From an uncultured Candidatus Saccharibacteria bacterium (GTDB taxonomy: Bacteria; Patescibacteriota; Doudnabacteria; UBA920), in NCBI GenBank assembly GCA_964453405.1, contig CAYVOF010000002.1, positions 10,825-74,824 of the forward strand: a stretch of DNA of 64,000 nucleotides, given 5' to 3'. The notes beneath the pieces were generated by a model that saw only the letters and a list, made by a program, of their open reading frames with translations, did not search any database and had not been told where the DNA came from. Numbering within the stretch: position 1 is the first letter of the stretch; every line of letters starts with the position of its first letter. This document shows, in pieces, positions 2,810-60,911 of the stretch. Made by a program: the position numbers and the translations under genes.

Positions 2810-3493
2810 ATGTTTAACTTTAACCGTTTTAACGTAGCGCTAGGATTAGTTATGACAGCCATAGTATGGTGGCTAACTGGCCTTTCATTGTCAGCAGGCA
2901 GCGGTGTCTTGTTCTTAATCGGAGTATTCCTTTTATCCACACCATTCCTAAAGATTAAAGGTAACCTATGGTCGCTTTTTGGCGGATTCAACCTAGATGG
3001 TAGCGTTTATTCATTGTTTAGCGTTATTCAAATTGCTAATCAGGATGCTATATCACTATTTGGTTTATCCCTTTTGCAGGGGGCCGGTAGAAAATCTATC
3101 CAAATATTTGGGGTGTCATTTATTCAAGTCGCTGGACGGGAAGCTATCCAAGCGATAGGAATCTCTATAGCTCAGCTTTCAAAGGAAGATGTGATTCAGC
3201 TCGCTGGAATCTCCTTAATTCAATTTGCATTTGAGGGAGAGGCCTTTCAGGTATTGGGATTTTTATTATTCCAAGGAGGTGAAAATGAAGCTGCTCAAAT
3301 CATAGGAGTAACTATGGTGCAAGCTTCAGGCGATACATCTGCCCAATTATTTGGACTAATACTTCTTCAACTAGCGGACGAACGAGCAGAGCAATCATTA
3401 GGTTTGTGCGCTATTAGATCCGCAGAACGAGTAACCGGCAAAACTGCTCACCTGATATATGAGAAACCGAGTAACTTCGCTATTGCCAATTAA
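2810..3493 (+). CDS. Membrane-anchored protein with eight tandem 16-aa repeats (IQxxGxSxxQxxxxxx)
   Basis: Strong SD (AAGGAGG) 6 nt upstream. N-terminal TM helices followed by a 48-nt periodic repeat in the DNA at 3050-3435. Confidence 0.6.
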   Translation: MFNFNRFNVALGLVMTAIVWWLTGLSLSAGSGVLFLIGVFLLSTPFLKIKGNLWSLFGGFNLDGSVYSLFSVIQIANQDAISLFGLSLLQGAGRKSIQIFGVSFIQVAGREAIQAIGISIAQLSKEDVIQLAGISLIQFAFEGEAFQVLGFLLFQGGENEAAQIIGVTMVQASGDTSAQLFGLILLQLADERAEQSLGLCAIRSAERVTGKTAHLIYEKPSNFAIAN

Positions 3494-3506
3494 GATCACT
3501 GACAAC

Positions 3507-3537
3507 AAAAGACTGTCCATACGACAGTCTTTTTTAT
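3507..3537 (+). terminator. Rho-independent terminator
   Basis: Perfect hairpin (agactgtc cat ac gacagtct) followed by a T-run. Confidence 0.7.
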
Positions 3538-3568
3538 TTTATAAATTTTTACGAGGCCGCGCCCCAAA

Positions 3569-5191
3569 CTACTTCAACTGCTCTTCAATCTGATCCTTTA
3601 GACTCACCGAAGTCATTTCTGGCGGCTTCTGAATACCAAAGAAGTCTAATACTGTTGGTGCCACATCCGAAACCACCCCTGAAGGCATAGTGTTAGACAA
3701 CGACAAATAGTTGCGTGTAGTTGCCTCTTTAAAAGCTAAATCTTTGGCAACAGCAATAAATGGCACTGGACTGGTACTGTGTTCGGTGTTAACGTCGCCA
3801 GTTTTGCGATCCAACATTTCTTCGATATTGCCGTGGTCTGCAGTAATAATTAACAAGCCATCAACGCTTAGCACTGCGCGACGGATTTTTTCTAAAAAGC
3901 GATCAACATATTGGACAGCTTTAACCGCAGCATCCATATTCCCTGTATGCCCTACCATATCCGTGTTAGCAAAATTGGCTAAATAAAATTGAAAATCTTC
4001 TTCTAATATTTTTTGCACTAATTTATCTGAAACTTCTATTCCCGACATCTGCGGCCTGTCTACATAATTTTTGTCATTAACTGGGCTTTGTATAATCACC
4101 CGTTCTTCGCCAGTAAATGGTTCACTTTTACCACCATTAAAAAATGAAGTCACGTGAGCAAACTTTTCACTTTCTGCAATATGAAACTGCCGCAAATTAT
4201 TTGTCGCAATAACTTCTGACAAATTATTTTTTAAATCCTGTTGAGCGAAGGCTACATGAACCGGCAGGGTACTAAAGTATTCGGTCATGGTAGCAAAGTA
4301 AAGATTTTCCAAAGGGGCGTGCTTTTTTTCGATATCCATTTCTTCGGGAACAACAAATGCTCGAGTTAACTGCAACGCACGATCCGAACGGAAATTAAAA
4401 AATATCACTGCATCATTAGGACCGACAACAGCAGTTGGCTTAATACTACCATCTTCACTGGATCGATCAACGATTACTGTTGGCGGAATCATTTCATCAA
4501 AGACACCTTGATTGTAATTATTAAGCACCGCGTCTTCTACTGTGTCTGCAGAGGCACCTGCACCTTTAACCATGGCGCGATAAGTAGCTTCGGTTTGATC
4601 CCAGTGCTTACCACGATCCATACCATAAAACCGACCGGCGATTGTGGCAATCTTTCCCACATTCTCCCTAGCCATAACTTCTTTTAACTGCGCAATGCTG
4701 TCGAGCGCAACTTTTGGCCCGGTGTCGCGACCATCAGTAAACATATGAATGAACACGTCAGTAAAATCCTGTTCGCGGCACATACCGAGCAACGCATACA
4801 AATGTTCGCTACTACTGTGAACTCCCCCGTCGCTAACCAATCCAACTAAGTGTAATTTTGATTTATTTTTCTTTGCATGTTCAATGGCTTCCAAAAATAC
4901 TGGATTAGTTAAAAAGGTGCGATTTTGAATAGCCTGGTTAATGCGTGGTAAATCTTGACCCACCACTCGACCTGCACCCATATTTAAATGGCCTACTTCG
5001 GAGTTACCTACTTCACCCCAAGGCAGTCCAACAATAGGCCCAGATGCCAACAAAGTTAACGATGGATAATGCGCAATCATATCATTAATACAATCTGGAT
5101 GCGCCAAAGCAATCGCATTACCATGTGTGTAAGTGGCAACACCAAAACCATCGAGAACAACTAGGACAATTTTTTTATAAGTTCGAGGCAT
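3569..5191 (-). CDS. gpmI: 2,3-bisphosphoglycerate-independent phosphoglycerate mutase
   Basis: 540 aa with an iPGM-like N-terminus (KKIVLVVLDGFG) and a metal-binding core. Confidence 0.9.
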   Translation of the reverse strand: MPRTYKKIVLVVLDGFGVATYTHGNAIALAHPDCINDMIAHYPSLTLLASGPIVGLPWGEVGNSEVGHLNMGAGRVVGQDLPRINQAIQNRTFLTNPVFLEAIEHAKKNKSKLHLVGLVSDGGVHSSSEHLYALLGMCREQDFTDVFIHMFTDGRDTGPKVALDSIAQLKEVMARENVGKIATIAGRFYGMDRGKHWDQTEATYRAMVKGAGASADTVEDAVLNNYNQGVFDEMIPPTVIVDRSSEDGSIKPTAVVGPNDAVIFFNFRSDRALQLTRAFVVPEEMDIEKKHAPLENLYFATMTEYFSTLPVHVAFAQQDLKNNLSEVIATNNLRQFHIAESEKFAHVTSFFNGGKSEPFTGEERVIIQSPVNDKNYVDRPQMSGIEVSDKLVQKILEEDFQFYLANFANTDMVGHTGNMDAAVKAVQYVDRFLEKIRRAVLSVDGLLIITADHGNIEEMLDRKTGDVNTEHSTSPVPFIAVAKDLAFKEATTRNYLSLSNTMPSGVVSDVAPTVLDFFGIQKPPEMTSVSLKDQIEEQLK

Positions 5192-47196: not shown

Positions 47197-48384
47197 TTAC
47201 TTAGTAATCTTTACAACAACACCAGCACCAACGGTTCGGCCACCTTCACGGATCGCGAACTTACCTTTTTCTTCCAAAGCAATTGGAGTAATAAGCTTAA
47301 TGTTGATGTTTACAGTATCACCAGGCATAACCATTTCTTGGCCTTCTGGCAAGATAACTTCACCGGTTACGTCAGTTGTACGTACGTAGAACTGTGGCTT
47401 ATAACCCTTGAAGAAAGGAGTGTGGCGTCCGCCTTCTTCTTTGTTCAAGATATAAACTTCAGCTTCGAACTCAGTGTGAGGAGTAATAGAACCAGTCTTA
47501 GCCAAAACTTGGCCGCGTTCTACTTCTTCCTTCTTAACACCGCGAAGTAATAGACCAGCGTTGTCACCAGCCATACCCTTGTCCAACTGCTTGTTGAACA
47601 TTTCGATACCAGTTACAACAGTCTTAGAAGTTGGTTTGATACCAACGATTTCGACTTCTTCGTTGATGTTGATCATACCGCGTTCGATACGACCAGTAAC
47701 TACAGTACCACGACCTTCGATTGTGAAGATGTCTTCGATAGGCATCAAGAAAGGTTGGTCAGTAGCACGAGATGGATCAGGGATGAAAGTATCCAAAGCT
47801 TCTACAAGCTTTAAGATAGATGGTTCACCCATATCAGATGTGTCGCCTTCCAAAGCTTTTAATGCACTACCACGGATGATAGGTGTGTCTTTGCCTGGGA
47901 ATTCGTACTTGTTAAGCAAGTCGCGGATTTCTTCTTCTACTAAATCCAAAAGTTCTGGATCAGAAACCATGTCGCACTTGTTCATGTAAACTACGATGTG
48001 AGGTACACCTACCTGACGAGCGAGCAAGATGTGTTCGCGAGTCTGAGGCATAGGACCATCAGTAGCAGATACTACAAGAATAGCACCGTCCATTTGAGCA
48101 GCACCGGTAATCATGTTCTTGATGTAGTCGGCGTGACCAGGACAGTCTACGTGAGCGTAGTGACGAGTTGCAGATTCATATTCTGCGTGAGAGGTATTAA
48201 TTGTAATACCACGAGCTTTTTCTTCTGGAGCGTTGTCGATGCTAGCGTAATCGCGAGCTTTAGCGCCACCAGTTTTAGCTAACACAGTTGTGATAGCTGC
48301 AGTCAAAGTGGTCTTACCATGGTCTACGTGACCGATAGTACCAACGTTGACGTGAGTCTTAGAACGATCAAATTGCTCTGCCAT
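47197..48384 (-). CDS. tuf: Elongation factor Tu
   Basis: [14 protein letters not shown] and NKCD G-motifs; 395 aa. Confidence 0.97.
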
Positions 48385-48647
48385 TTGATACCTTTCTGTT
48401 CTATAAATTCGGTTCTAGCCCCGAGATACCCTCTCTACTTCCCCTTATCATCCTGATCGGGACTGGCTAGCTAAAGCGGGCTAAAGCTGGCGATTCGGGA
48501 AAGAAGGGAGGGTTTCTCTTTTTTTCGCAAGGAATCCAGGTGACGAGAAAAGAGATTTATAGTTTTTTAATGATTTTAAAATTGGCGACGGAGACGCGCG
48601 CCAATCACAATGTATTGTAAGTGGTTTTGGGTGAGTTTGTCAAGGGT

Positions 48648-48676
48648 TTGACAGCAATAGAAAAGTTGCTTACAAT
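48648..48676 (+). promoter_or_regulatory. Sigma70-type promoter TTGACA-17-TACAAT for the lipoprotein gene
   Basis: Consensus hexamers; an adjacent TTGTCA ... TTGACA inverted repeat overlaps the -35. Confidence 0.5.
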
Positions 48677-48699
48677 ATTGAGTCAATACAGGAGGACAT

Positions 48700-49149
48700 A
48701 TGAATATAACATTTAGACCAGTTTACAAAATTATTGTGCTGATGATCTTGATGCTTTTTGTCGGTTCGGCCACTGGTTGCAAATCGGATGCCAAAATTGC
48801 TGAAGCTAAGGTGGAAAAGGAAATAGAAAGGGAACAAAAGTTAACCCAGCTTAAAACGTACTCAGACGAAACTTGGACAGTAAAGCAAATTAATTTGCAA
48901 AACGATTCTTCTATAACAAATGATAATACATACGCTGTGATTATCGAAAACCCGAAGGGCGAGCGTAGGTATCTCAAGGCTGTAGAATCAAACCGTAGAG
49001 ACTATGGCAAATTACAAAGTTGGATGCTGGCCCACGATGACCAATTAAAATTTGCCATTAATGAATCAGTTTCTGTATTTAATTCTGAAGGTGACTTGCC
49101 CTATCTAATACTCGTGGAGAGAAATGGTAAAGTTATGACTCCTCATTAA
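48700..49149 (+). CDS. Putative lipoprotein (149 aa)
   Basis: Signal peptide with lipobox ATGC; SD AGGAGG. Confidence 0.55.
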   Translation: MNITFRPVYKIIVLMILMLFVGSATGCKSDAKIAEAKVEKEIEREQKLTQLKTYSDETWTVKQINLQNDSSITNDNTYAVIIENPKGERRYLKAVESNRRDYGKLQSWMLAHDDQLKFAINESVSVFNSEGDLPYLILVERNGKVMTPH

Positions 49150-49166
49150 CGAGGAGTTTTTTATTG
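49137..49166 (+). terminator. Rho-independent terminator
   Basis: actcctc attaac gaggagt followed by T6. Confidence 0.6.
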
Positions 49167-49239
49167 ACTAACTTCTTTAAAATCTATACAATTCAAAACC
49201 TAAGATAAACTCTTAGATAAAAATATAAGGAGGTGTAAT

Positions 49240-49479
49240 ATGAATTACCCAATATTCAAACAGCGATGGGTTAAAACCTTGCCTGATGGCAAAGTTGCAG
49301 AAGTGTACTCTATACACCTCACCCCAGAATCAGCAATTGAATTTATCGAACAGCAAAGACTCCAGCCAACATACCCAGAATATATAGCTACTGGTCATCC
49401 CGTGCCAGATATGGTCAACGAAGAAATTTTTAATTACTTAACTACGGCCAAAAATTGGTGGACAGAAGAAGAACATTAA
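49240..49479 (+). CDS. Hypothetical small protein (79 aa)
   Basis: SD AAGGAGG 7 nt upstream; bidirectional terminator hairpin at 49496-49525. Confidence 0.5.
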   Translation: MNYPIFKQRWVKTLPDGKVAEVYSIHLTPESAIEFIEQQRLQPTYPEYIATGHPVPDMVNEEIFNYLTTAKNWWTEEEH

Positions 49480-49525
49480 GTAAATCAGAATTAACAAAAC
49501 GCACCCGTTTGGATGCGTTTTTATT

Positions 49526-50010
49526 TTATATGTCGTCAAAGTTGGGTTTGATTTCTTCGTCCGCTTCTGTTTCGACTAAAGGTTGAGCTAATGGCATACC
49601 AAAACTTGGATCCATTACTTCTTCTCGCAAGTCATATTGAGGTGGCTCTTGTCGGCCGTAGGGTTGGTTGATAAACAAATCTTTGGCGCGTTTAGAAAGA
49701 ATATTTTTTATCGGCGTCGGCATGATTACCGAATGAGGTGCTGTGTTAGGTACATCATCTGCAATAGTTTCTAGATTAATGTTTGTAGTGTCCACGATAT
49801 CGGTGAGCTGGGCTTCTAATATTTCACGGTTAATTTTTTCTGGGTCTGGACCAGTAGGAGTTGAACTTGCTACGCCAGTCAAAACCGTACCACCAGCCAT
49901 GCGCTGATATTCAGCAAAGGACAAAAATACACCCTTCACTTTCCCATCTTCGCCAACAATCATTACTTTTCCATCTTGCCCTGCAAATTGTATTAAATCT
50001 TTAAGGTTCA
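49526..50010 (-). CDS. Hypothetical protein with a Phd/YefM-antitoxin-like N-terminal ~50 aa and an acidic Pro-rich tail
   Basis: An N-terminal pattern (KVMIVGEDGKVKGVFLSFAEYQRM) resembles Phd/YefM. The ATG at 50010 lies 7 nt after a TTGCCA-17-TATAGT promoter, so the mRNA is likely leaderless; the track TTG start is at 50047. Confidence 0.4.
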
Positions 50011-50137
50011 TATTTAATACTATAGTCGGCTCAGTCAATATTGGCAAATAAATATGGGTTAAGCTTGGGATACTTACAAATCGCTTTACAAATCCAAATA
50101 GATTATCTACAAAGTAAAGTCTAAATAAGGAGGAAAA

Positions 50138-50347
50138 ATGGCAAAATATTTTGTTAGTGGTTTAATCACAACTGTTCGTTCTCAAGTTGGTGATGACAAT
50201 AAAAAACATTTTGATCGATTTATAGATTACCCGCTTATCGTTTCGGAAGCTGATTATGCTGACTTTAGAAACGAGCTTGCGGAAAAACTAAACGCACACC
50301 CAACAGATCTTGAAGTCACTAATCTGAATGTTCTTTTCAAAACCTGA
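50138..50347 (+). CDS. Hypothetical small protein (69 aa)
   Basis: SD AAGGAGG; followed by a bidirectional terminator at 50357-50392 shared with fusA. Confidence 0.5.
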   Translation: MAKYFVSGLITTVRSQVGDDNKKHFDRFIDYPLIVSEADYADFRNELAEKLNAHPTDLEVTNLNVLFKT

Positions 50348-50399
50348 CATTACAAAAACCGTCCCCATGTTAGAGACGGTTTTTTTATTTCTATTAAAT

Positions 50400-52529
50400 T
50401 TACTGCATACCCTTACGAACGTTCATGCCCGCACGGGATTCAATAATATTTGCGGCAACATTCTTTGGAACTTCTTCATAGTGATCAAATTCCATGATGC
50501 TGGATGCCTGACCTTGAGTCATAGAACGCAACTGTGTTGCATAACCAAACATTTCGGCTAGCGGTACAAATGCAGTTACAACCTTGCGACCAGTAATATC
50601 TTCCATATCCTGAATCTTAGCGCGCTTAGAGTTTAAGTCACCGATTACATCACCCATGTTAAGTTCTGGCGTAGTAACAACAACTTTCATGACTGGTTCT
50701 AAGATAATAGGATCACCTTTCTTAACAGCTTCTTGTAAACATTTTGAAGCAGCAATTTTGAAGGCCATTTCGGAAGAGTCAACTTCGTGATAGCTACCGT
50801 CGTAAACAGCAGCACTAAAGTCTACTAATGGATAACCGGCAATAACACCGTTTGCGGCAGATTCCTGAATACCTTTATCAATTGGCTTGATGTATTCTTT
50901 TGGAATTACACCACCAACAATTTCGTCTTTAAATTCATAACCCTTACCTGCTTCGAGCGGTTCGACACGCAAGTAAACGTGACCATATTGACCGCGTCCA
51001 CCAGACTGACGAATATACTTAACTTCGGCAGTAGCCATTTTCTTAAAGCTTTCTTTGTAAGCAACTTCTGGTTTACCGACGTTAGCCTCGACTTTGAATT
51101 CGCGCTTCATACGGTCTACCAAAATTTCTAAGTGCAATTCACCCATACCAGCAATAATTGTTTGCTGAGTTTCGTCGTTAGTAGAAACTTTAAAGGTTGG
51201 ATCTTCTTCTGCAAGTTTTTGCATCGCAATACCCATTTTTTCTTGATCAGCTTTGGTCTTAGGTTCGATCGCCATGCTGATAACTGGTTCTGCGAATTTA
51301 ATCTTTTCTAATTCGATTGGAGAAGATTCAGCACAAAGAGTATCAGCAGTGATAGTGTCTTTTGGACCTACCAACGCGCAGATGTCTCCAGCAAATACTT
51401 CTTTAACTTCGTCACGTTGATCAGCGCGCATACGTACGATACGACCAACGCGTTCTTTGTTACCGCTACGAGCGTTAAGTACGTAAGAACCGGCTTCCAA
51501 TTTACCAGAGTAAACCCGGAAGAAAGCTAAACGTCCAACGAAAGGATCAGTTGCAATTTTAAATGCCAAAGCAGTAAATGGTTCGTCATCAGTTGGATGA
51601 CGAAGTAGTTCTTCACCAGTTTTTGGGTTATGACCTTTAACTGGTTCTTTGTCGGTTGGAGATGGCAAGAAGTTAGCAACACCGTCTAATAATGTACGCA
51701 CAATGATCCCGCGACCGTCACCACCGAATACTGGGAAGAATTCACCAGAGCGAGTAGCTTTGCGAATCGCTAGCAATAATTCTTCTTCGGTAAGTTCTTT
51801 ACCTTCTAAATATTTTTCCATTAACTGATCGTCGAATTCAACAACTTTTTCAATCAATTCGTGGCGGTACTTTTCACACTTTTCTTTTAAGTCCGCTGGT
51901 ACTTCACCGATGGTAAATTCTTTGTCAGTAAAATCTTTGTAGGTATAGGACTTCATTTGAACAAGGTCAACAACACCAACAATGTCTTTTTCAAATCCAA
52001 TTGGAATTTGAACAGGAAAAGCATTCTTAGTTAAACGGTTGTGAATTGATTCAAGCGATTTAAAGAAGTCACCACCGGTTTGGTTGATTTTGTTAATGAA
52101 GCACATGCGTGGTACGCCGTACTTGTCGGCTTGGCGCCACACAGTTTCGGACTGAGGTTCTACACCCATTTTTCCGTCGAACACGGTAACTGCGCCGTCG
52201 AGTACGCGCAAAGAGCGCTCTACTTCTACGGTAAAGTCTACGTGACCTGGAGTGTCGATAATGTTAATTTTGTATTCTGGAAGTTCGTCCGCTAACTTAA
52301 CGTACTGAGGCTTCCAATAACAAGTTACAGCCGCGGATGTAATTGTAATACCGCGTTCGCGTTCTTGTTCCATCCAGTCGGTCACAGTTTCACCTTCGTG
52401 AACCGCACCGATCTTGTGGATCATACCGGTGTTGTACAAGATACCTTCGGTAGTTGTAGTTTTACCAGCGTCGATGTGAGCGATAATCCCGATATTACGG
52501 GTCGCTTCTATTTGATAATCTCTGGGCAT
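50400..52529 (-). CDS. fusA: Elongation factor G
   Basis: AHIDAGKTT and DTPGHVDF G-motifs; 709 aa. Confidence 0.97.
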
Positions 52530-52574
52530 AATTTAATGGTTAATTTATAGTGTTTTTGGGTTTTTGTTCAATAC

Positions 52575-52603
52575 TTGACAATTTTATAATTATATGATAT
52601 AAT
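52575..52603 (+). promoter_or_regulatory. Perfect consensus sigma70 promoter TTGACA-17-TATAAT
   Basis: Seen directly in the sequence; it drives the small + strand gene lying antisense to the str operon. Confidence 0.6.
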
Positions 52604-52630
52604 GTAGTCAAACTGAGTTGGAGGAACTTT

Positions 52631-52828
52631 ATGAAAGCTAAAAATGTTGTTGGAATAATTCTGATCATTCTTGGAATAATTACCATTCTGTTCGGCCTTA
52701 TCGAAACAAACTGGTTGAGTATGTGGGAACTAGTTACACAAAGATTCGTTACCGGGTGGAAATTAATCCTTAGCATCATTATTGGTTGTATTCTTATACT
52801 GTCAGGTCGATATCTTCGACAGAGGTAA
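52631..52828 (+). CDS. Small hydrophobic two-TM protein (65 aa) encoded antisense between rpsG and fusA
   Basis: Consensus promoter, SD GGAGG 6 nt from the ATG, and terminator hairpin gatccgcc...ggcggat plus T-run at 52856-52890. Confidence 0.55.
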   Translation: MKAKNVVGIILIILGIITILFGLIETNWLSMWELVTQRFVTGWKLILSIIIGCILILSGRYLRQR

Positions 52829-52890
52829 AAGAATTACAACAGTTTGGGATCCGCCTAGTTTTACTGGCGGATTTTTTATTTCCCTGTTCC

Positions 52891-53403
52891 CTACTTACGC
52901 TTCGCACCGAATCTTGCAAAGTGAGCGAAAGCTTTGTTGGCTTCGGCCATACGGTGAGTGTCTTCACGCTTCTTTACTGCAGCACCGGTCTTGTTAAATG
53001 CATCAACAACTTCCTGTGCTAACTTAGTAGCCATAGGCGCACCTTTGCGGGCGCGTGCGGCTGCGATCATCCATTTCATTCCAAGTGCAGTGCGGCGAGG
53101 TTCTTGAACTTCCATTGGTACCTGATAGTTAGAACCACCAATACGGCGACCTTTAATTTCCATAATTGGGCAAACATTTTTTAAAGCGATGTCAAAAATT
53201 TGACGAGCGTCGGTAACTTCGGCATCTTTGTTTGCCTTCATCTTTTCTTCAACAATATCTAATGCAGAATAAAAGATTTTTTGCGAAACAGTTTTCTTAC
53301 CGCGTTCCATCAAATAGTTAATGAACTTAGCGTACTTTACACTGCTAAATTTTGGATCTGGTTCTGGAGTGTGTTTTTCGTAACTACGTGCTCTTCGTGG
53401 CAT
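52891..53403 (-). CDS. rpsG: 30S ribosomal protein S7
   Basis: MPRRARSYEK start and conserved S7 core. Confidence 0.92.
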   Translation of the reverse strand: MPRRARSYEKHTPEPDPKFSSVKYAKFINYLMERGKKTVSQKIFYSALDIVEEKMKANKDAEVTDARQIFDIALKNVCPIMEIKGRRIGGSNYQVPMEVQEPRRTALGMKWMIAAARARKGAPMATKLAQEVVDAFNKTGAAVKKREDTHRMAEANKAFAHFARFGAKRK

Positions 53404-53451: not shown

Positions 53452-53877
53452 TTAAGCAGCGGCAGATGGACGCTTGGTTCCATACTTACTGCGAGAGCGT
53501 TTTCGACCGTCAACGCCTAAAGTGTCGAGCTTACCTCGAACAATGTGATAACGAACACCAGGTAAATCTTTTACACGACCACCACGGATCATGACTACAC
53601 TGTGTTCCTGCAAGTTATGACCAACTCCTGGAATGTAAGCAAGAACTTCCATACCGTTAGTTAATTTAACTTTTGCAATCTTACGTAAAGCCGAGTTTGG
53701 CTTTTTTGGTGTAGAAGTATACACCTTGAGACATACACCACGCATAAATGGCGCGCCAGTTTTGATGAACAAAGTTTTGTTCTTGATCAAGTTTTGGCGA
53801 CGCTGTAATGCCGGTGATGCACTTTTCGTGGTAAGAGGCTTACGCGCCTTACGCACCAATTGGTTAATTGTTGGCAT
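53452..53877 (-). CDS. rpsL: 30S ribosomal protein S12
   Basis: [12 protein letters not shown] start and [10 protein letters not shown] motif. Confidence 0.95.
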
Positions 53878-53947: not shown

Positions 53948-54175
53948 TTACAAAATAAAAACAGGCATAGAGCCAGTCTCTATAGTTCGCTATTTTGGTA
54001 CTCTGACGAAGCCTGTGCCAGTTGTTTCCCAATTTAGCGGCAAATGTGCCAGTAATTCCTTAAGTTAGGGGCTTCTAATGAATTGTGTTCAGATTATATC
54101 AATAATTGTATATTTGGTCAAATATTGACAGGGCACGATAAAAAATGACAGAATCTAATTTCAAAGGAGGAAAAT

Positions 54176-54977: not shown

Positions 54978-55006
54978 TTGACAAAAACTGTATTATATGC
55001 TATAAT
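54978..55006 (+). promoter_or_regulatory. Perfect consensus sigma70 promoter TTGACA-17-TATAAT
   Basis: It lies about 245 nt upstream of the GTG start of the GC-rich gene and just outside the left inverted repeat. Confidence 0.55.
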
Positions 55007-55087: not shown

Positions 55088-55252
55088 GATTGTCTCGCTA
55101 ATTAAGTCCCCCAGCAAAAACCGTAACATATTTATTTAGTACGAACTTTTACTGAGGGCTTAAACTAGCGAGGCAACTCGTGAAATTTTTTGGCACCGGC
55201 CCCAGGCCACTGTCAATTCGTTACTCACTTCAGAATATAGGAGATAAAAAAG

Positions 55253-56073
55253 TGAAAATACCTTTCGAAATTTGTATTAAAGCGAGCGAATTCTTTAACC
55301 ACATGGCAATCGGTCTCAAGGGCAAGTTTTGCCCATTCGACGATGGTCAACATTGGCCCGAGCTCACGATCAGCCACACAAAAGACGGCAAGATCGAAAT
55401 TTCAAACGATCGAAACGGCCTAATAACGATGAACCAGGATGATACACTCAACGTGAATCAGAAAGGACACATCGGCTTAATCTTCGGACCAGCCCGCTTC
55501 GGTAAAAATCGCGTTAAGGCAGCAATCGCAGCAACCTCACTACTCAGCCGGGATGTTGAATTCAATAATACCGATGTGTTCATCCCTATGAATGGACACT
55601 ATGTAATCGTGTTTGACGCTAACAAGCCTGACGGTCAGCATGAGCAAAGAATCAACGAAGTCGGCACAGTCGTCCAAGGACACGACGCTGTAATTCTCTT
55701 CGACCGAAACGACAACCCGGTTAAGGCTTGGCTTCGGAACGACGCGCAAACCACACTCGCCTTTTTGGCCAGCTGTGCAAAACGCAAACCGTCAGGAGCG
55801 ATGCAAATCTTCTTTGACCGCGGCCTCGAAGCATTCAATGCTACCGTAGCGGCGAATGCGCTCAAGAGCCAGCGTAATACAGAGCTGGAAGCGCTGACCA
55901 AGAAGCTCGAAGTCAACAAACCAGTCAAGGTCATGGTCGGCAACAAAAAATTCGTCGTCAGTTGGCGCAAAGTCAACCGCGGCGAAATGGTCAGCGCAAA
56001 ACGAGCTGATCTCAGAACCCTGTACGATACGGGTGTTCTCCACGAGATCGTCGCCCAGGTTTCGACTCATTAA
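55253..56073 (+). CDS. Hypothetical protein encoded in a roughly 50% GC segment, likely horizontally acquired
   Basis: GTG start with SD AGGAG 9 nt upstream. The track ATG at 55180 lacks an SD. No recognisable motif. Confidence 0.5.
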
Positions 56074-57670: not shown

Positions 57671-58138
57671 TTATTTATTGAGTTGTTGAATTTCCTTGGT
57701 CAATTTAGTAGCGATATACACCCAGATTATATATGGCACCAAAAGTAGCGCAGCAAAGTGAGAAGTTATAAACATGATGATAGCCGCAACAATTGTAGTG
57801 GCGTTTAAATACTGCATCCACTTGATGGATTTTTTAAAATTATGTTCCACAAAAAAAGCTTTGTTCCAGTAGGCGTTAAGATAAGCATTAACTAACATTA
57901 TCGCACCCACAACATACTGCCAAACCCCAAAGGCTGGGACATTCCAAAACCACAACATTGCAAAGCCTGTTAATAGATATAATATAGTCCAAATCTGCCC
58001 AATCATCTGACCCGTTGGTGTCCACTTTGGTTTGTGCAAATGTGAATACCAACCGTGCAGACCGCGCTTTGTAAAGCGGCTGCCTTTGTAAGCAGTAAAA
58101 GCAATGATCGCAGGAATAATAAGAAAATTAAATTTCAT
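57671..58138 (-). CDS. TspO/MBR (tryptophan-rich sensory protein) family membrane protein
   Basis: WY..L.KPKWTP...W..LY pattern and 5 TM helices. Confidence 0.6.
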   Translation of the reverse strand: MKFNFLIIPAIIAFTAYKGSRFTKRGLHGWYSHLHKPKWTPTGQMIGQIWTILYLLTGFAMLWFWNVPAFGVWQYVVGAIMLVNAYLNAYWNKAFFVEHNFKKSIKWMQYLNATTIVAAIIMFITSHFAALLLVPYIIWVYIATKLTKEIQQLNK

Positions 58139-58763
58139 ATGTTTTGTTTAATTCTGGGTCAATAAATTTTAAACCTAATTTTTCGCACCACATTTTAGAG
58201 AATCGGTAGAACGCTCCCCCACCATCGGTGATGAAACCATCGTGAATTGGAAAATTAATTTGTGCTTTAATGCCTGCTAAGTAATCTAAAGTTTCGCTGA
58301 CCTTGCTCCACGGCGCGGCGATCGGAATTAAAAGAACTTCCACAGTTTTTGGCGGGGTAAATAACATATCACCTGGATGAAAAATTTTATCGTTTATTAA
58401 ATAGCCGGTGTTTTGAAACTTTGGTAAATCTGGGTGCATAATGGCGTGTTCGTTGCCATAGGCTTCGAGGGTAAAGGTGCCGATTGTGGTTGTAGCGCCC
58501 GCCTCGACAACTTCGCAAGCAATATTATTCTTGTCTAATTCAGCCTTAACTTCGGTGTTAGTAATAATGCGTGGATTATTCTTTAACAATGGTTGCAATT
58601 TTTCCATATCAACATGGTCTTGATGAACGTGGGTAATGATAATTGCGTCCACTGTCAAATCAGGAATATTACTATAGACCCCTGGATCAAATAAAATTTT
58701 TGTTTGGCCATCGTAGAGCAATATGCACGAATGGCCATATTTAGTTATTTGCATGATTGACAA
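58128..58763 (-). CDS. MBL-fold metallo-hydrolase
   Basis: THVHQDHVD (HxHxDH) motif. Confidence 0.7.
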   Translation of the reverse strand: MSIMQITKYGHSCILLYDGQTKILFDPGVYSNIPDLTVDAIIITHVHQDHVDMEKLQPLLKNNPRIITNTEVKAELDKNNIACEVVEAGATTTIGTFTLEAYGNEHAIMHPDLPKFQNTGYLINDKIFHPGDMLFTPPKTVEVLLIPIAAPWSKVSETLDYLAGIKAQINFPIHDGFITDGGGAFYRFSKMWCEKLGLKFIDPELNKTYEI

Positions 58764-58810
58764 TTTTTAAAAAATATCGTAAGATTTTATATTACTTGAA
58801 GGAGGAAAAT

Positions 58811-59044
58811 ATGAGCAAAGTTCTTAGAGCTGGGAAATGTTACTGTGACTGTCATCGCCCTGGATCACGCACAATGCATATGGTCGCCTGCTGTCATACA
58901 TGTGAGTTCTGCGGCGAAGATGAAATTACTACGATACATTCGCATAAAATTGTCTGTGAGCGTAACCCAAAAAACGGTGGCACACCAATAACCGTCGAGG
59001 AAAAATATCGAAACATAGCCCTGAGAAAAAAATACTTAGGCTAA
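58811..59044 (+). CDS. Small cysteine-rich protein (77 aa; possible metal-binding)
   Basis: SD AAGGAGG 6 nt upstream of the ATG at 58811; nine Cys residues (CYCDCH, CCHTCEFC); terminator at 59043-59070. Confidence 0.5.
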   Translation: MSKVLRAGKCYCDCHRPGSRTMHMVACCHTCEFCGEDEITTIHSHKIVCERNPKNGGTPITVEEKYRNIALRKKYLG

Positions 59045-59078
59045 ACCGCTAATACAGCGGTTTTTTATTTATCCAGAT

Positions 59079-60911
59079 CTACCAACTTCCTCCACCTCCG
59101 CCGCCTCCACCTCCGCCAACGCCGCCCCCACCAAAACCACTTCCTCCGCTAGCTGCGGTGTTCATAGAAGTCACAGCAGATTGCATAGAGCTAGAAAAGT
59201 CGCCGATTGAGCTGGATAGTAAAGCCACATTAAACGCAGCGCCAGTAGAATCATTATACCAAGTTGGCTGTTGATTATAAATTCCTTCAAATTGCTTTGC
59301 CCATTCTTTTTCTACCCCTAACGCTACGGCGTAAGGCAACAAAGCCTCAAACTGTTCTGGTTTTTTGTCCGGTGCATTGGCAAACGCCAAGCGATCTTTT
59401 TCCGCAACTCCAAGATATAATTTTAAACCTAAAATGTATTCGCGCATCTCGGCTCCTTTTTGAGTACGAGCTGGCATTATCAAACCAAAGATAGCAATTA
59501 TCACACCAGAAGCAATAGCGCTAACAACACCTAAAACATCAAACCATTGATACAAAAAAACGGAAAGACCAAACCCTACCAACATAGCTGCCGCAGCATT
59601 TAAATTTCTAATTGTAAAAGGATTATACTTATAATAACCCTCGCGTTTTAAAGCCTTGAATACATCATTAGGCATCTCACGCAAAATATCACCAAAGCCA
59701 AGATTAGTTTTCAAATGTGATAAGTTAACCTCAATTAAATTTTTTCCTGTACTGTCAAATTTTAATTCAGATTTGGATGGTGCAAATATATTCTTAGTCA
59801 ACAAATCACTTAATTCTTCAAAAACAAACAAACCTGTTAGTAATTGTTTGGTTTGCACTGGCAACTTATCATCTGGCTCTTTAAGTTTAATCAATTTATA
59901 ATCCGAACCTTTAAAAAATAATAATTTTTTGGTTTCTATTTTTTCGATTTTAATATAACCCTGAACGGCCAAGTAAATTAATTCCGCCGAAAAATCACGG
60001 TTATCTAATTTACCATCAACCAACGTTCCTATGTATAAAGGAGTCAAACCGGTTGGTGGTTCAAATTGTGCCACAATTGTGCCGCGACCTTTGCCGTCTT
60101 TGCCAAACTTTCGCCACACAAAAAACATAATAATAAAAACGACGACAGGCAAAGCTACAATGCCGTTATCCTTAATAAAGTCTAAAACTTTTTGTTGAGT
60201 GGTTGGTTTGGTGATTGTGCCTGCAGGCATACCAATCACGATGGTAAACCCTTCATTTTGCTTTAGAACATTATCATAATTAAATTGAGGCTGAGCGGCG
60301 ATAGAAGCTGTCTTAAGACAATTTGTGCTATTACTTCCTTTTGAACCGACGTAACATTCCACTTGTATTGCTGCTGCTGGTAAATTAACTAACACAGAAC
60401 TCTTCAAAATTGGCACTGTCCAATCAGTGCCGATTGCGTTCCAGTATAACTCATCGTGATCGGGGAAAAAATTAATGGCTCGAGAAACTGAGTAATTAAT
60501 GTCGTAAGTGTGCTTGCCGATAATAGTCTGATTAGGGTCGCCAATCTTTATGGAAAACTTTCCGTCATTTCTTGTTTTGGTAAATCCAGCCGGAGTACCA
60601 CTGCTAGCGGTTACAGAAATGTCTGAAATTCGTAAGTTAAATTTCCCATAAGAATTATCATATTGATAAGGGATATCTCGAAAAATTCCGTGATGATCTC
60701 TGTCTGCAAAATCATATTCGATATGCTCCTTAATATAAATTTGACCATTTGCTTGCACGTCGATAACCACTTGGTAATTATCAATGTGTTCTACTTTAGA
60801 AAAGTCTTGCTTAAAGGGTTGCTGAGCCAAAACCGTAGTGGTGGTCGATCCAAAAAATCCTAAACCAGCTAAGACAATTAAACTAAAAATTAAAGATTTA
60901 AATGCTTTCAT
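59079..60911 (-). CDS. DUF2207-like membrane protein with C-terminal poly-glycine tail
   Basis: Signal peptide, an extracellular domain, TM helices and a terminal GGGGVGGGGGGGGGGSW tail. Confidence 0.55.
   Translation of the reverse strand: MKAFKSLIFSLIVLAGLGFFGSTTTTVLAQQPFKQDFSKVEHIDNYQVVIDVQANGQIYIKEHIEYDFADRDHHGIFRDIPYQYDNSYGKFNLRISDISVTASSGTPAGFTKTRNDGKFSIKIGDPNQTIIGKHTYDINYSVSRAINFFPDHDELYWNAIGTDWTVPILKSSVLVNLPAAAIQVECYVGSKGSNSTNCLKTASIAAQPQFNYDNVLKQNEGFTIVIGMPAGTITKPTTQQKVLDFIKDNGIVALPVVVFIIMFFVWRKFGKDGKGRGTIVAQFEPPTGLTPLYIGTLVDGKLDNRDFSAELIYLAVQGYIKIEKIETKKLLFFKGSDYKLIKLKEPDDKLPVQTKQLLTGLFVFEELSDLLTKNIFAPSKSELKFDSTGKNLIEVNLSHLKTNLGFGDILREMPNDVFKALKREGYYKYNPFTIRNLNAAAAMLVGFGLSVFLYQWFDVLGVVSAIASGVIIAIFGLIMPARTQKGAEMREYILGLKLYLGVAEKDRLAFANAPDKKPEQFEALLPYAVALGVEKEWAKQFEGIYNQQPTWYNDSTGAAFNVALLSSSIGDFSSSMQSAVTSMNTAASGGSGFGGGGVGGGGGGGGGGSW

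Follow-up and report, generated by a model that had tools for sequence, protein, structure and literature searches.

Phage morons are independent transcription units added between conserved genes (PMC3594210). A unit of similar design is located on the + strand (52575-52881) of a 64,000-nucleotide stretch of DNA, here termed the window, from an uncultured Candidatus Saccharibacteria bacterium (contig CAYVOF010000002.1 of assembly GCA_964453405.1). Judged by its sequence-level signals, this unit comprises its own promoter, a single small open reading frame (ORF) of 65 codons and its own factor-independent terminator, and it is positioned antisense between rpsG and fusA of the str operon. The likeness to morons extends to its placement between genes that are directly adjacent in close relatives, its presence or absence in near-identical genomes, a cargo that is unrelated from genome to genome, and expression signals that exceed those of neighbouring genes in strength. 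In contrast to morons, the cassette resides in a cellular essential translation operon (flanks encoding S12, S7, EF-G and EF-Tu) rather than in a prophage and is always oriented antisense; moreover, none of nine local ORFs matches a PHROG and no relatives were found in viral contigs. In terms of composition, the GC content (0.359 versus 0.398 for the window) is close to that of the gap and not clearly deviant, GC3 equals that of fusA, codon usage is not core-like, and neither a donor nor signs of a horizontal spread of this cargo were found. The phage moron is the closest match in design, while failing the defining phage context. With a probability of about 0.6, the unit would represent a self-contained, moron-like accessory gene cassette lying antisense in a clade-specific variable rpsG-fusA slot.

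In case of the excludons of Listeria (PMC7154746, PMC3377988), a long transcript likewise runs antisense across an opposite gene and then continues as mRNA beyond it, resulting in inverse coupling; excludons were defined from transcript maps, whereas the present locus is known from sequence alone and its overlapped gene is a variable orphan instead of a conserved gene of opposed function. As a functional analogy, the excludon appears to be a good one. With integron cassettes the unit has in common the small single-ORF format, unrelated cargo at one chromosomal position and a hairpin-forming sequence after each unit. Unlike integron cassettes, each unit carries its own promoter, the hairpin is a terminator (7-bp GC stem plus T-run) instead of an attC site, and one cassette per slot (two in locus L096) is found rather than an array; no integrase was seen, the window not having been fully scanned for one. 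Class II holins and pinholins are phage proteins of roughly 65-95 amino acids with two transmembrane (TM) segments. The encoded protein resembles them generically in size, two hydrophobic helices, N-in/C-in charges and a basic C-terminal tail, but an endolysin or other lysis gene is absent from its neighbourhood, the context is not that of a phage, and PHROGs gave no match.

Architecture and coding potential of the cassette

The rpsG-fusA intergenic slot of the window (361 bp; 52530-52890) is filled by a cassette with the order promoter, optimally spaced GGAGG, ORF starting exactly there and ending just before a terminator. The sigma-70-type promoter (52575-52603, +) consists of TTGACA (52575-52580), a 17-nt spacer and TATAAT (52598-52603), corresponding to a consensus score of 12/12, and is of the extended -10 type (TG at 52595-52596). 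Transcription is predicted to start near 52610, yielding a leader of ~20 nt in which the Shine-Dalgarno (SD) sequence GGAGG (52620-52624, +), 6 nt 5' of the ATG at 52631, should be accessible (P(unpaired) 0.91). The ORF (52631-52828, +; product MKAKNVVGIILIILGIITILFGLIETNWLSMWELVTQRFVTGWKLILSIIIGCILILSGRYLRQR) is followed by a one-way intrinsic terminator (52846-52881, +), formed by the stem ATCCGCC (52849-52855)/GGCGGAT (52866-52872) and the subsequent T-tract TTTTTTATTT, which ends 10 nt from the rpsG stop codon. This hairpin (dG -16.7 kcal/mol, z -2.2) was passed over by a terminator pattern scan solely owing to its 10-nt loop. On its minus-strand side the hairpin is followed by CCCAAACUG, so that a U-run is present on the + strand alone. 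Promoter, SD, ORF and terminator hairpin thereby agree in position and strand with what an earlier note on this DNA had read from the sequence. An overlapping minus-strand ORF (52540-52779, 79 aa) was dropped, since it lacks an SD and has a lower codon score, and no Rfam family was detected in the gap even at E <= 1.

The 65-aa protein has hydrophobic windows at residues 6-24 and 39-57, a GRAVY of 1.12 and K/R at both termini, its charge distribution agreeing with the positive-inside rule. The two windows agree with the earlier description as a hydrophobic two-TM protein; the simplest reading would be a membrane hairpin of two helices that keeps its basic termini in the cytoplasm. Homologues were detected neither in a word-indexed search of 5.8e9 proteins nor by a full HMMER scan of 1.84e9 representative proteins, and an exact look-up was empty, as was a tblastn search of phage and plasmid records. 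Viral contigs contained no homologue, the PDB yielded none (best E = 0.81), PHROGs and PADLOC returned nothing, and the Pfam matches obtained (DUF202 and DUF2583) stayed below threshold. We take the protein to be a strain-specific accessory envelope protein, neither a housekeeping factor nor a classical toxin.

Promoter matches with at most one mismatch occur 10 times in the window (two of them perfect) versus 0.72 expected from shuffles. Nearly all consensus matches are located in gaps 5' of ORFs, indicating that the organism uses the sigma-70 consensus. Overall, the four expression signals of the cassette exceed chance expectation. An ATG-initiated ORF of 65 codons or more is seen in 1.4 % of gap shuffles, and two or more TM-like windows are obtained in 0.7 % of stop-free ORF shuffles (7 % of random sequences of gap composition). 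By codon log-likelihood the annotated frame ranks top of six (-5.7 versus -14 to -70) and outscores 96 % of off-frame windows; its second codon positions are 51 % T. Taken alone, the ORF would constitute a credible, compositionally atypical small gene.

Occupancy and cargo of the slot in relatives

Relative loci were gathered via the S7 protein and a metagenome scan, and the rpsG-fusA gap was then measured; the clade was delimited by S7 proteins at least about 58 % identical. The closest named S7 relatives are from uncultured Candidatus Saccharibacteria (64-66 % identity), while metagenomic relatives reach 92-96 %. Within the clade the gap spans 13-1091 bp, as compared to usually 12-200 bp outside, and falls into ~14 distinct empty loci (<=48 bp), six hairpin-rich ones of 92-168 bp and 17 filled ones (>=287 bp); a distance of 13-30 bp separates rpsG from fusA in L084, L170, L173, L175-178, L105, L089 and L094. 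All 17 distinct filled gaps harbour an antisense ORF of 43-143 aa behind a GGAGG-type SD, and in 15 of them a hairpin plus T-run is present (L093 and L087 show no clear one). A promoter with a score of 10/12 or more (TTGACA-17-TAnnnT type), mostly 30-50 nt from the fusA ATG, was recognised in 10 of the 17, the remainder scoring 8-9.

These features are strongly biased towards one strand. Of 16 gaps, 9 have promoter-like sites with scores of 10/12 or higher on the antisense strand and only one has such a site on the sense strand, and small SD-led ORFs outside long genes, counted across 31 clade loci, are antisense to the operon in 20 cases and sense in one. Given the gap composition, the joint chance that 16 SD-proximal frames stay open is ~1e-35 (L174, found later, being excluded). 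Defined as an antisense promoter at most ~50 nt from the fusA ATG, a GGAGG-type SD, an ORF of 43-143 aa and a hairpin plus T-run at most ~30 nt from the rpsG stop, the complete slot architecture is present in the window as well as in L081, L166, L169, L085 and L174, and in looser form in 11 more loci.

About half of the close relatives are without a cassette, including one with an identical S7 protein, and genomes with S7 identities of at least 92 % comprise six kinds of cargo along with four or more empty sites. L169 (428-bp gap, 86-aa cargo) and L170 (15-bp gap) share an identical S7 protein and differ at 8 % of 4-fold sites (K4 = 0.09), pointing to recent gain or loss of the cassette. As far as sequence is concerned, the check for ORF conservation in relatives, proposed in the earlier note, formally goes against the small gene; this check is beside the point, however, since conservation applies to the occupied antisense expression slot and not to this ORF.

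With the exception of a loose group sharing a Cys...CPxCG pattern, BLASTP detects no relationship among the cargo proteins. They have no significant Pfam match and are each restricted to their own strain. Hydrophobic cargos are encoded in the window and in L166, L114, L122, L001 and L093, those of L166 and L122 being weaker by hydropathy threshold. TM-like windows number one in L001 (43 aa), two in L114 (65 aa), one at threshold in L122 (64 aa) and three to four in L093 (134 aa); the cargo of L166 (75 aa) is hydrophobic by eye, with none at the Kyte-Doolittle (KD) threshold. By contrast, about 10 of the 17 cargos lack any TM-like window at this threshold and are soluble, acidic or Cys-rich. 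An N-terminal Cys combined with a C-terminal F-C-P-x-C-G was aligned among L081, L169, L123, L096, L130 and L118; a database search with this alignment retrieved its own members only, and AlphaFold2 gave no usable model (pLDDT 40). Other soluble cargos are those of L085, L087, L095, L002 and L174.

Among the five closest filled relatives, the promoter and rpsG sides of the gap align (z up to 8.3) but the ORF interiors do not (z about 0). Since 4-fold-site divergence of rpsG and fusA among them is only 0.4-0.7, a level at which similarity should still be recognisable after neutral drift, the unalignable interiors have been replaced rather than drifted. One may ask whether the gap acts as a resident "expression socket", in which a vertically inherited frame is kept, with the consensus promoter, SD and start codon next to fusA and the T-tract next to rpsG, and unrelated short ORFs are repeatedly swapped in or born de novo. 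This is regarded as a rather doubtful possibility; if true, it would represent a natural gene nursery or cassette exchanger inside a highly conserved operon. Both cassette ends resemble the empty-site spacer GAAATAAAAT, which is too AT-rich and of too low complexity to call a target-site duplication.

Several loci deserve separate mention. The largest gap (L096, 3040-4131; 1091 bp) contains two tandem antisense SD-led ORFs (92 and 83 aa), implying that the slot is able to hold more than one unit. In L167 (S7 94 %), a 106-bp self-complementary gap (3514-3619; dG -37.6 kcal/mol) is bounded by the terminal inverted repeats ATGTCATCC...GGATGACAT and resembles a miniature palindromic element more than the remnant of a cassette; the other intermediate gaps L097, L108 and L110 are hairpin-rich as well. 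L095 carries, beside its antisense 74-aa cargo, a sense-oriented 117-aa ORF (3083-3436) with some resemblance, by eye, to a DUF559/Vsr-like endonuclease domain. L002 and L112 are identical in rpsG, the 852-bp cassette, the first 284 nt of fusA and again after a 600-nt patch of fusA with 56 differing positions. Located inside fusA and unlinked to the cassette, this patch was dropped as a cassette-related mosaic; it stems either from recombination or from chimeric assembly. The cargo ORFs were called in the records of L081, L169 and L174, and were left uncalled in those of L085 (3568-3783; complete genome CP064996.1) and L166 (~3565-3792). Small genes of the slot class are thus partly missing from public annotation. 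In the literature searched, nothing specific was found on such an arrangement in Saccharibacteria or at rpsG-fusA, nor any description of a variable antisense small-gene slot at this junction across a Saccharibacteria-like clade.

Expression within the str operon and competing explanations

Embedding of the small gene in the minus-strand str operon, as claimed in the earlier note, is confirmed by Pfam assignments of the flanks: rpsG (ribosomal protein S7; 52891-53403, -; PF00177, E = 4.8e-52) is convergent with the small gene, fusA (EF-G; 50400-52529, -) is divergent from it, and rpsL (53452-53877, -) is located further upstream in the operon. A promoter 5' of rpsL (54093-54121, -; TTGACC, 17 nt, TATAAT with TG) is the likely source of a transcript opposing the small gene. 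No minus-strand terminator was found within the gap and the hairpin has its U-run on the + strand only, in accord with the head-on arrangement proposed previously. Terminators of the present cassette and of a second one at 58811 carry a U-run on one strand only, as opposed to the bidirectional terminator 3' of fusA. With a one-way terminator in the cassette, str polymerase starting at the rpsL promoter should read through to fusA.

From these signals the following course of events may be envisaged. RNA polymerase would start near 52610 at the consensus promoter, and the short leader would expose GGAGG for translation of the 65-aa protein, which, according to hydropathy and charge, would insert into the membrane as a helical hairpin with its basic ends inside. 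Transcription would end at the hairpin and U-run (52846-52881), while str transcription would pass through the cassette into fusA. Only antisense insertions might be tolerated in this essential operon, because a one-way terminator would be non-polar in antisense orientation. The two transcripts would be complementary over ~270 nt, with polymerases meeting head-on; output of the small protein could as a consequence be inverse to str transcription, along with some loosening of rpsG-fusA coupling, a suggestion put forward tentatively. Modulation of fusA by transcriptional interference, as considered in the earlier note, is plausible.

Alternatively to read-through, fusA may have gained its own promoter. 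The fusA ATG is not preceded by an SD (upstream sequence ttaaccattaaatt), and this absence is common to filled loci, in contrast to the purine-rich 13-16-nt spacer of empty loci. A candidate fusA promoter was recognised by eye at 52544-52571 (-; TTGAAC 52571-52566, 16 nt, TATAAA 52549-52544), back-to-back with the cassette -35 and with a prospective leader of ~7 nt; the promoter scanner skipped it, since its rule demands T at the sixth -10 position. Filled relatives possess a -10-like TATTAA or TATAAA 9-15 nt before the fusA ATG, with no recognisable -35. A conserved internal fusA promoter is unsupported across filled loci.

A number of observations weigh against an accessory gene cassette that is read through by str polymerase. 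Compared to 99.5 % of real-gene windows, the 65-aa ORF has a lower codon score, and its choice of synonymous codons is background-like, unlike that of core genes (p about 0.001); a very young age or weak selection could be the reason. Purifying selection on it is not measurable because no second copy was found anywhere, and dN/dS of cargo ORFs in general is precluded by same-cargo pairs being 100 % identical. A donor was not found for any cargo, nor did the searches listed above provide phage, plasmid or defence homology in favour of a mobile origin. Across this genome, + strand genes generically end in the T-tract TTTTTTATTT, meaning that part of the frame similarity reflects shared function rather than descent, and this T-tract was downgraded as evidence of homology. 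Single-sequence AlphaFold2 modelling predicts one continuous helix (residues 3-64, pLDDT 91) and no hairpin; such a model cannot decide between helical hairpin and single helix. Finally, the sense strand of the gap is untranslated with C > G, and if Rho is encoded, read-through could be terminated and fusA then be dependent on its own promoter, a candidate for which is present in the window only.

Type I toxins (Hok, TisB, Fst, Ldr, Ibs; PMC2887945, PMC8309996) are likewise small, hydrophobic, basic and intergenic, with potential complementary RNA, and the earlier note had considered a toxin of this kind. The 65-aa protein would then be membrane-damaging, with str read-through RNA or else an antisense RNA dedicated to this role as antitoxin, and would be made only upon collapse of ribosomal-operon transcription. 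Strong hydrophobicity and basic termini of the small protein, an opposing transcript that would cover the gene fully if read-through occurs, and the further hydrophobic cargos of the slot (L001, L114, L122, L166, L093) are compatible with this proposal. Yet a dedicated antisense promoter-terminator unit is absent from the gap: the sole minus-strand promoter-like site (10/12) is located within the ORF, lacks a terminator and is without counterpart in 15 other filled loci. Furthermore, the SD is accessible instead of sequestered, the promoter is perfect and of constitutive type, and two TM segments in 65 aa differ from the mostly one-TM toxins of <60 aa (PMC2887945, PMC8309996). With about 10 of 17 slot cargos lacking a TM-like window, no sequence relation to any toxin family and no match to toxin or defence profiles, the toxin proposal did not find support and is considered unlikely. 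Recurrence of promoter, SD, start codon and terminator in the clade, with protein sequences that do not recur, would also be expected if the transcription unit itself was functional as an antisense insulator or attenuator, splitting rpsL-rpsG from fusA by polymerase collision or duplex-RNA processing; the ORF would be kept open merely so that translation protects the RNA, its sequence being free to change. The SD-less fusA and the -10-like TATTAA/TATAAA of filled loci fit this notion. What renders it improbable is that about half of the close relatives are cassette-free, implying dispensability for str regulation, that interiors retain no residual DNA similarity despite modest neutral divergence, indicating replacement and not free drift, that the same cassette design recurs at the unrelated sites 58811, 50138 and 49240, and that the two-TM pattern and codon-position bias point to protein-level selection.

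A further explanation views the ORF as a very young or de novo proto-gene, an open frame that a strongly expressed slot has produced on its T-rich strand, hydrophobic by chance and of little or no established function. It agrees with the orphan status among 1.84e9 representative proteins, which extends to all slot cargos as narrow orphans, with background-like synonymous codon usage and a GC content near that of the gap, and with the 7 % of stop-free random gap-composition sequences displaying two TM-like windows. Stop-free 65-codon frames, however, occur in only ~0.6 % of random draws, the ORF start is placed precisely behind a GGAGG at optimal spacing and its end immediately precedes the terminator, its charges follow the positive-inside rule, and the interiors found in neighbouring strains are not related to each other as mutational variants; its probability is accordingly judged to be low. 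That a chance ORF between chance signals, unexpressed and biologically meaningless, is seen here could be argued from the atypical codon usage and from the skipping of such ORFs by some gene callers (cargos of L085 and L166). A perfect promoter, perfect SD, 65 codons and a terminator in the right order and spacing, the same architecture in 17 of 17 filled slots and a strand bias of 20 to 1 make this very hard to accept. The evidence taken together favours the accessory gene cassette as read above.

Related units in the window and implications

Further + strand units of cassette design are encoded in the window at 49240-49479 (79 aa), at 50138-50347 (69-aa orphan with GGAGG SD, convergent with fusA) and at 58757-59072, the latter comprising TTGACA-17-TAAGAT (58757-58785), GGAGG (58801-58805), a 77-aa Cys-rich orphan ORF (58811-59044) and a one-way terminator (59043-59072). 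The 58811 cassette is flanked by genes for a metallo-beta-lactamase-fold protein (58128-58763, -) and a DUF2207 protein (59079-60911, -). Its promoter directly borders the start of the minus-strand gene downstream, which has no space left for its own promoter and so must be read through the cassette. The terminator hairpin of the 50138 unit (about 50355-50379) is followed by a U-run on either strand and is thus likely to terminate fusA transcription as well, the fusA stop being at 50400-50402. Perfect GGAGG motifs were found in front of 8 of 9 + strand genes versus 4 of 64 - strand (core) genes, alternative starts allowed (Fisher p = 3e-7), setting the + strand genes apart as a distinct gene class; all + strand genes in the window end with the T-tract TTTTTTATTT. 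Core genes such as fusA lack an SD altogether. The local + strand proteins have no Pfam match above curated cut-off and no PHROG or PADLOC match. The cassette is one of a class of strongly signalled, head-on orphan genes among co-directional core genes.

Spacing between fusA and tuf (47197-48384) amounts to ~2 kb (48385-50399) with four orphan genes, comprising the units at 49240-49479 and 50138-50347 as well as one at 48700-49149 (+) with, by eye, a lipoprotein-like N-terminus, and another at 49526-50047 (-). The region after fusA differs in relatives, containing an M48 peptidase gene in L081 and other ORFs in L084 and L085. The sole other perfect TTGACA-17-TATAAT (54978-55006, +) is positioned ~170 nt 5' of the first start of a 297-aa orphan ORF (55180-56073), the position of which between an M50 peptidase gene and rpsL is kept in relatives (L085, 297 aa).

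The order rpsL-rpsG-fusA is among the most conserved bacterial gene arrangements. Its rpsG-fusA junction as a hot spot for strongly signalled, strain-specific orphan mini-genes in one lineage is unexpected. Antisense orientation combined with a one-way terminator would provide a simple rule for the entry of foreign or new genes into essential operons without polar damage. The locus would further offer a compact natural system in which convergent transcription is set against a ribosomal-protein operon, possibly along with birth and turnover of small genes. For reduced, host-dependent bacteria of the candidate phyla radiation (CPR), the findings point to a class of small proteins that is partly missed by automatic annotation, and strain-specific envelope proteins of this kind may shape the interactions of CPR bacteria with hosts or phages.

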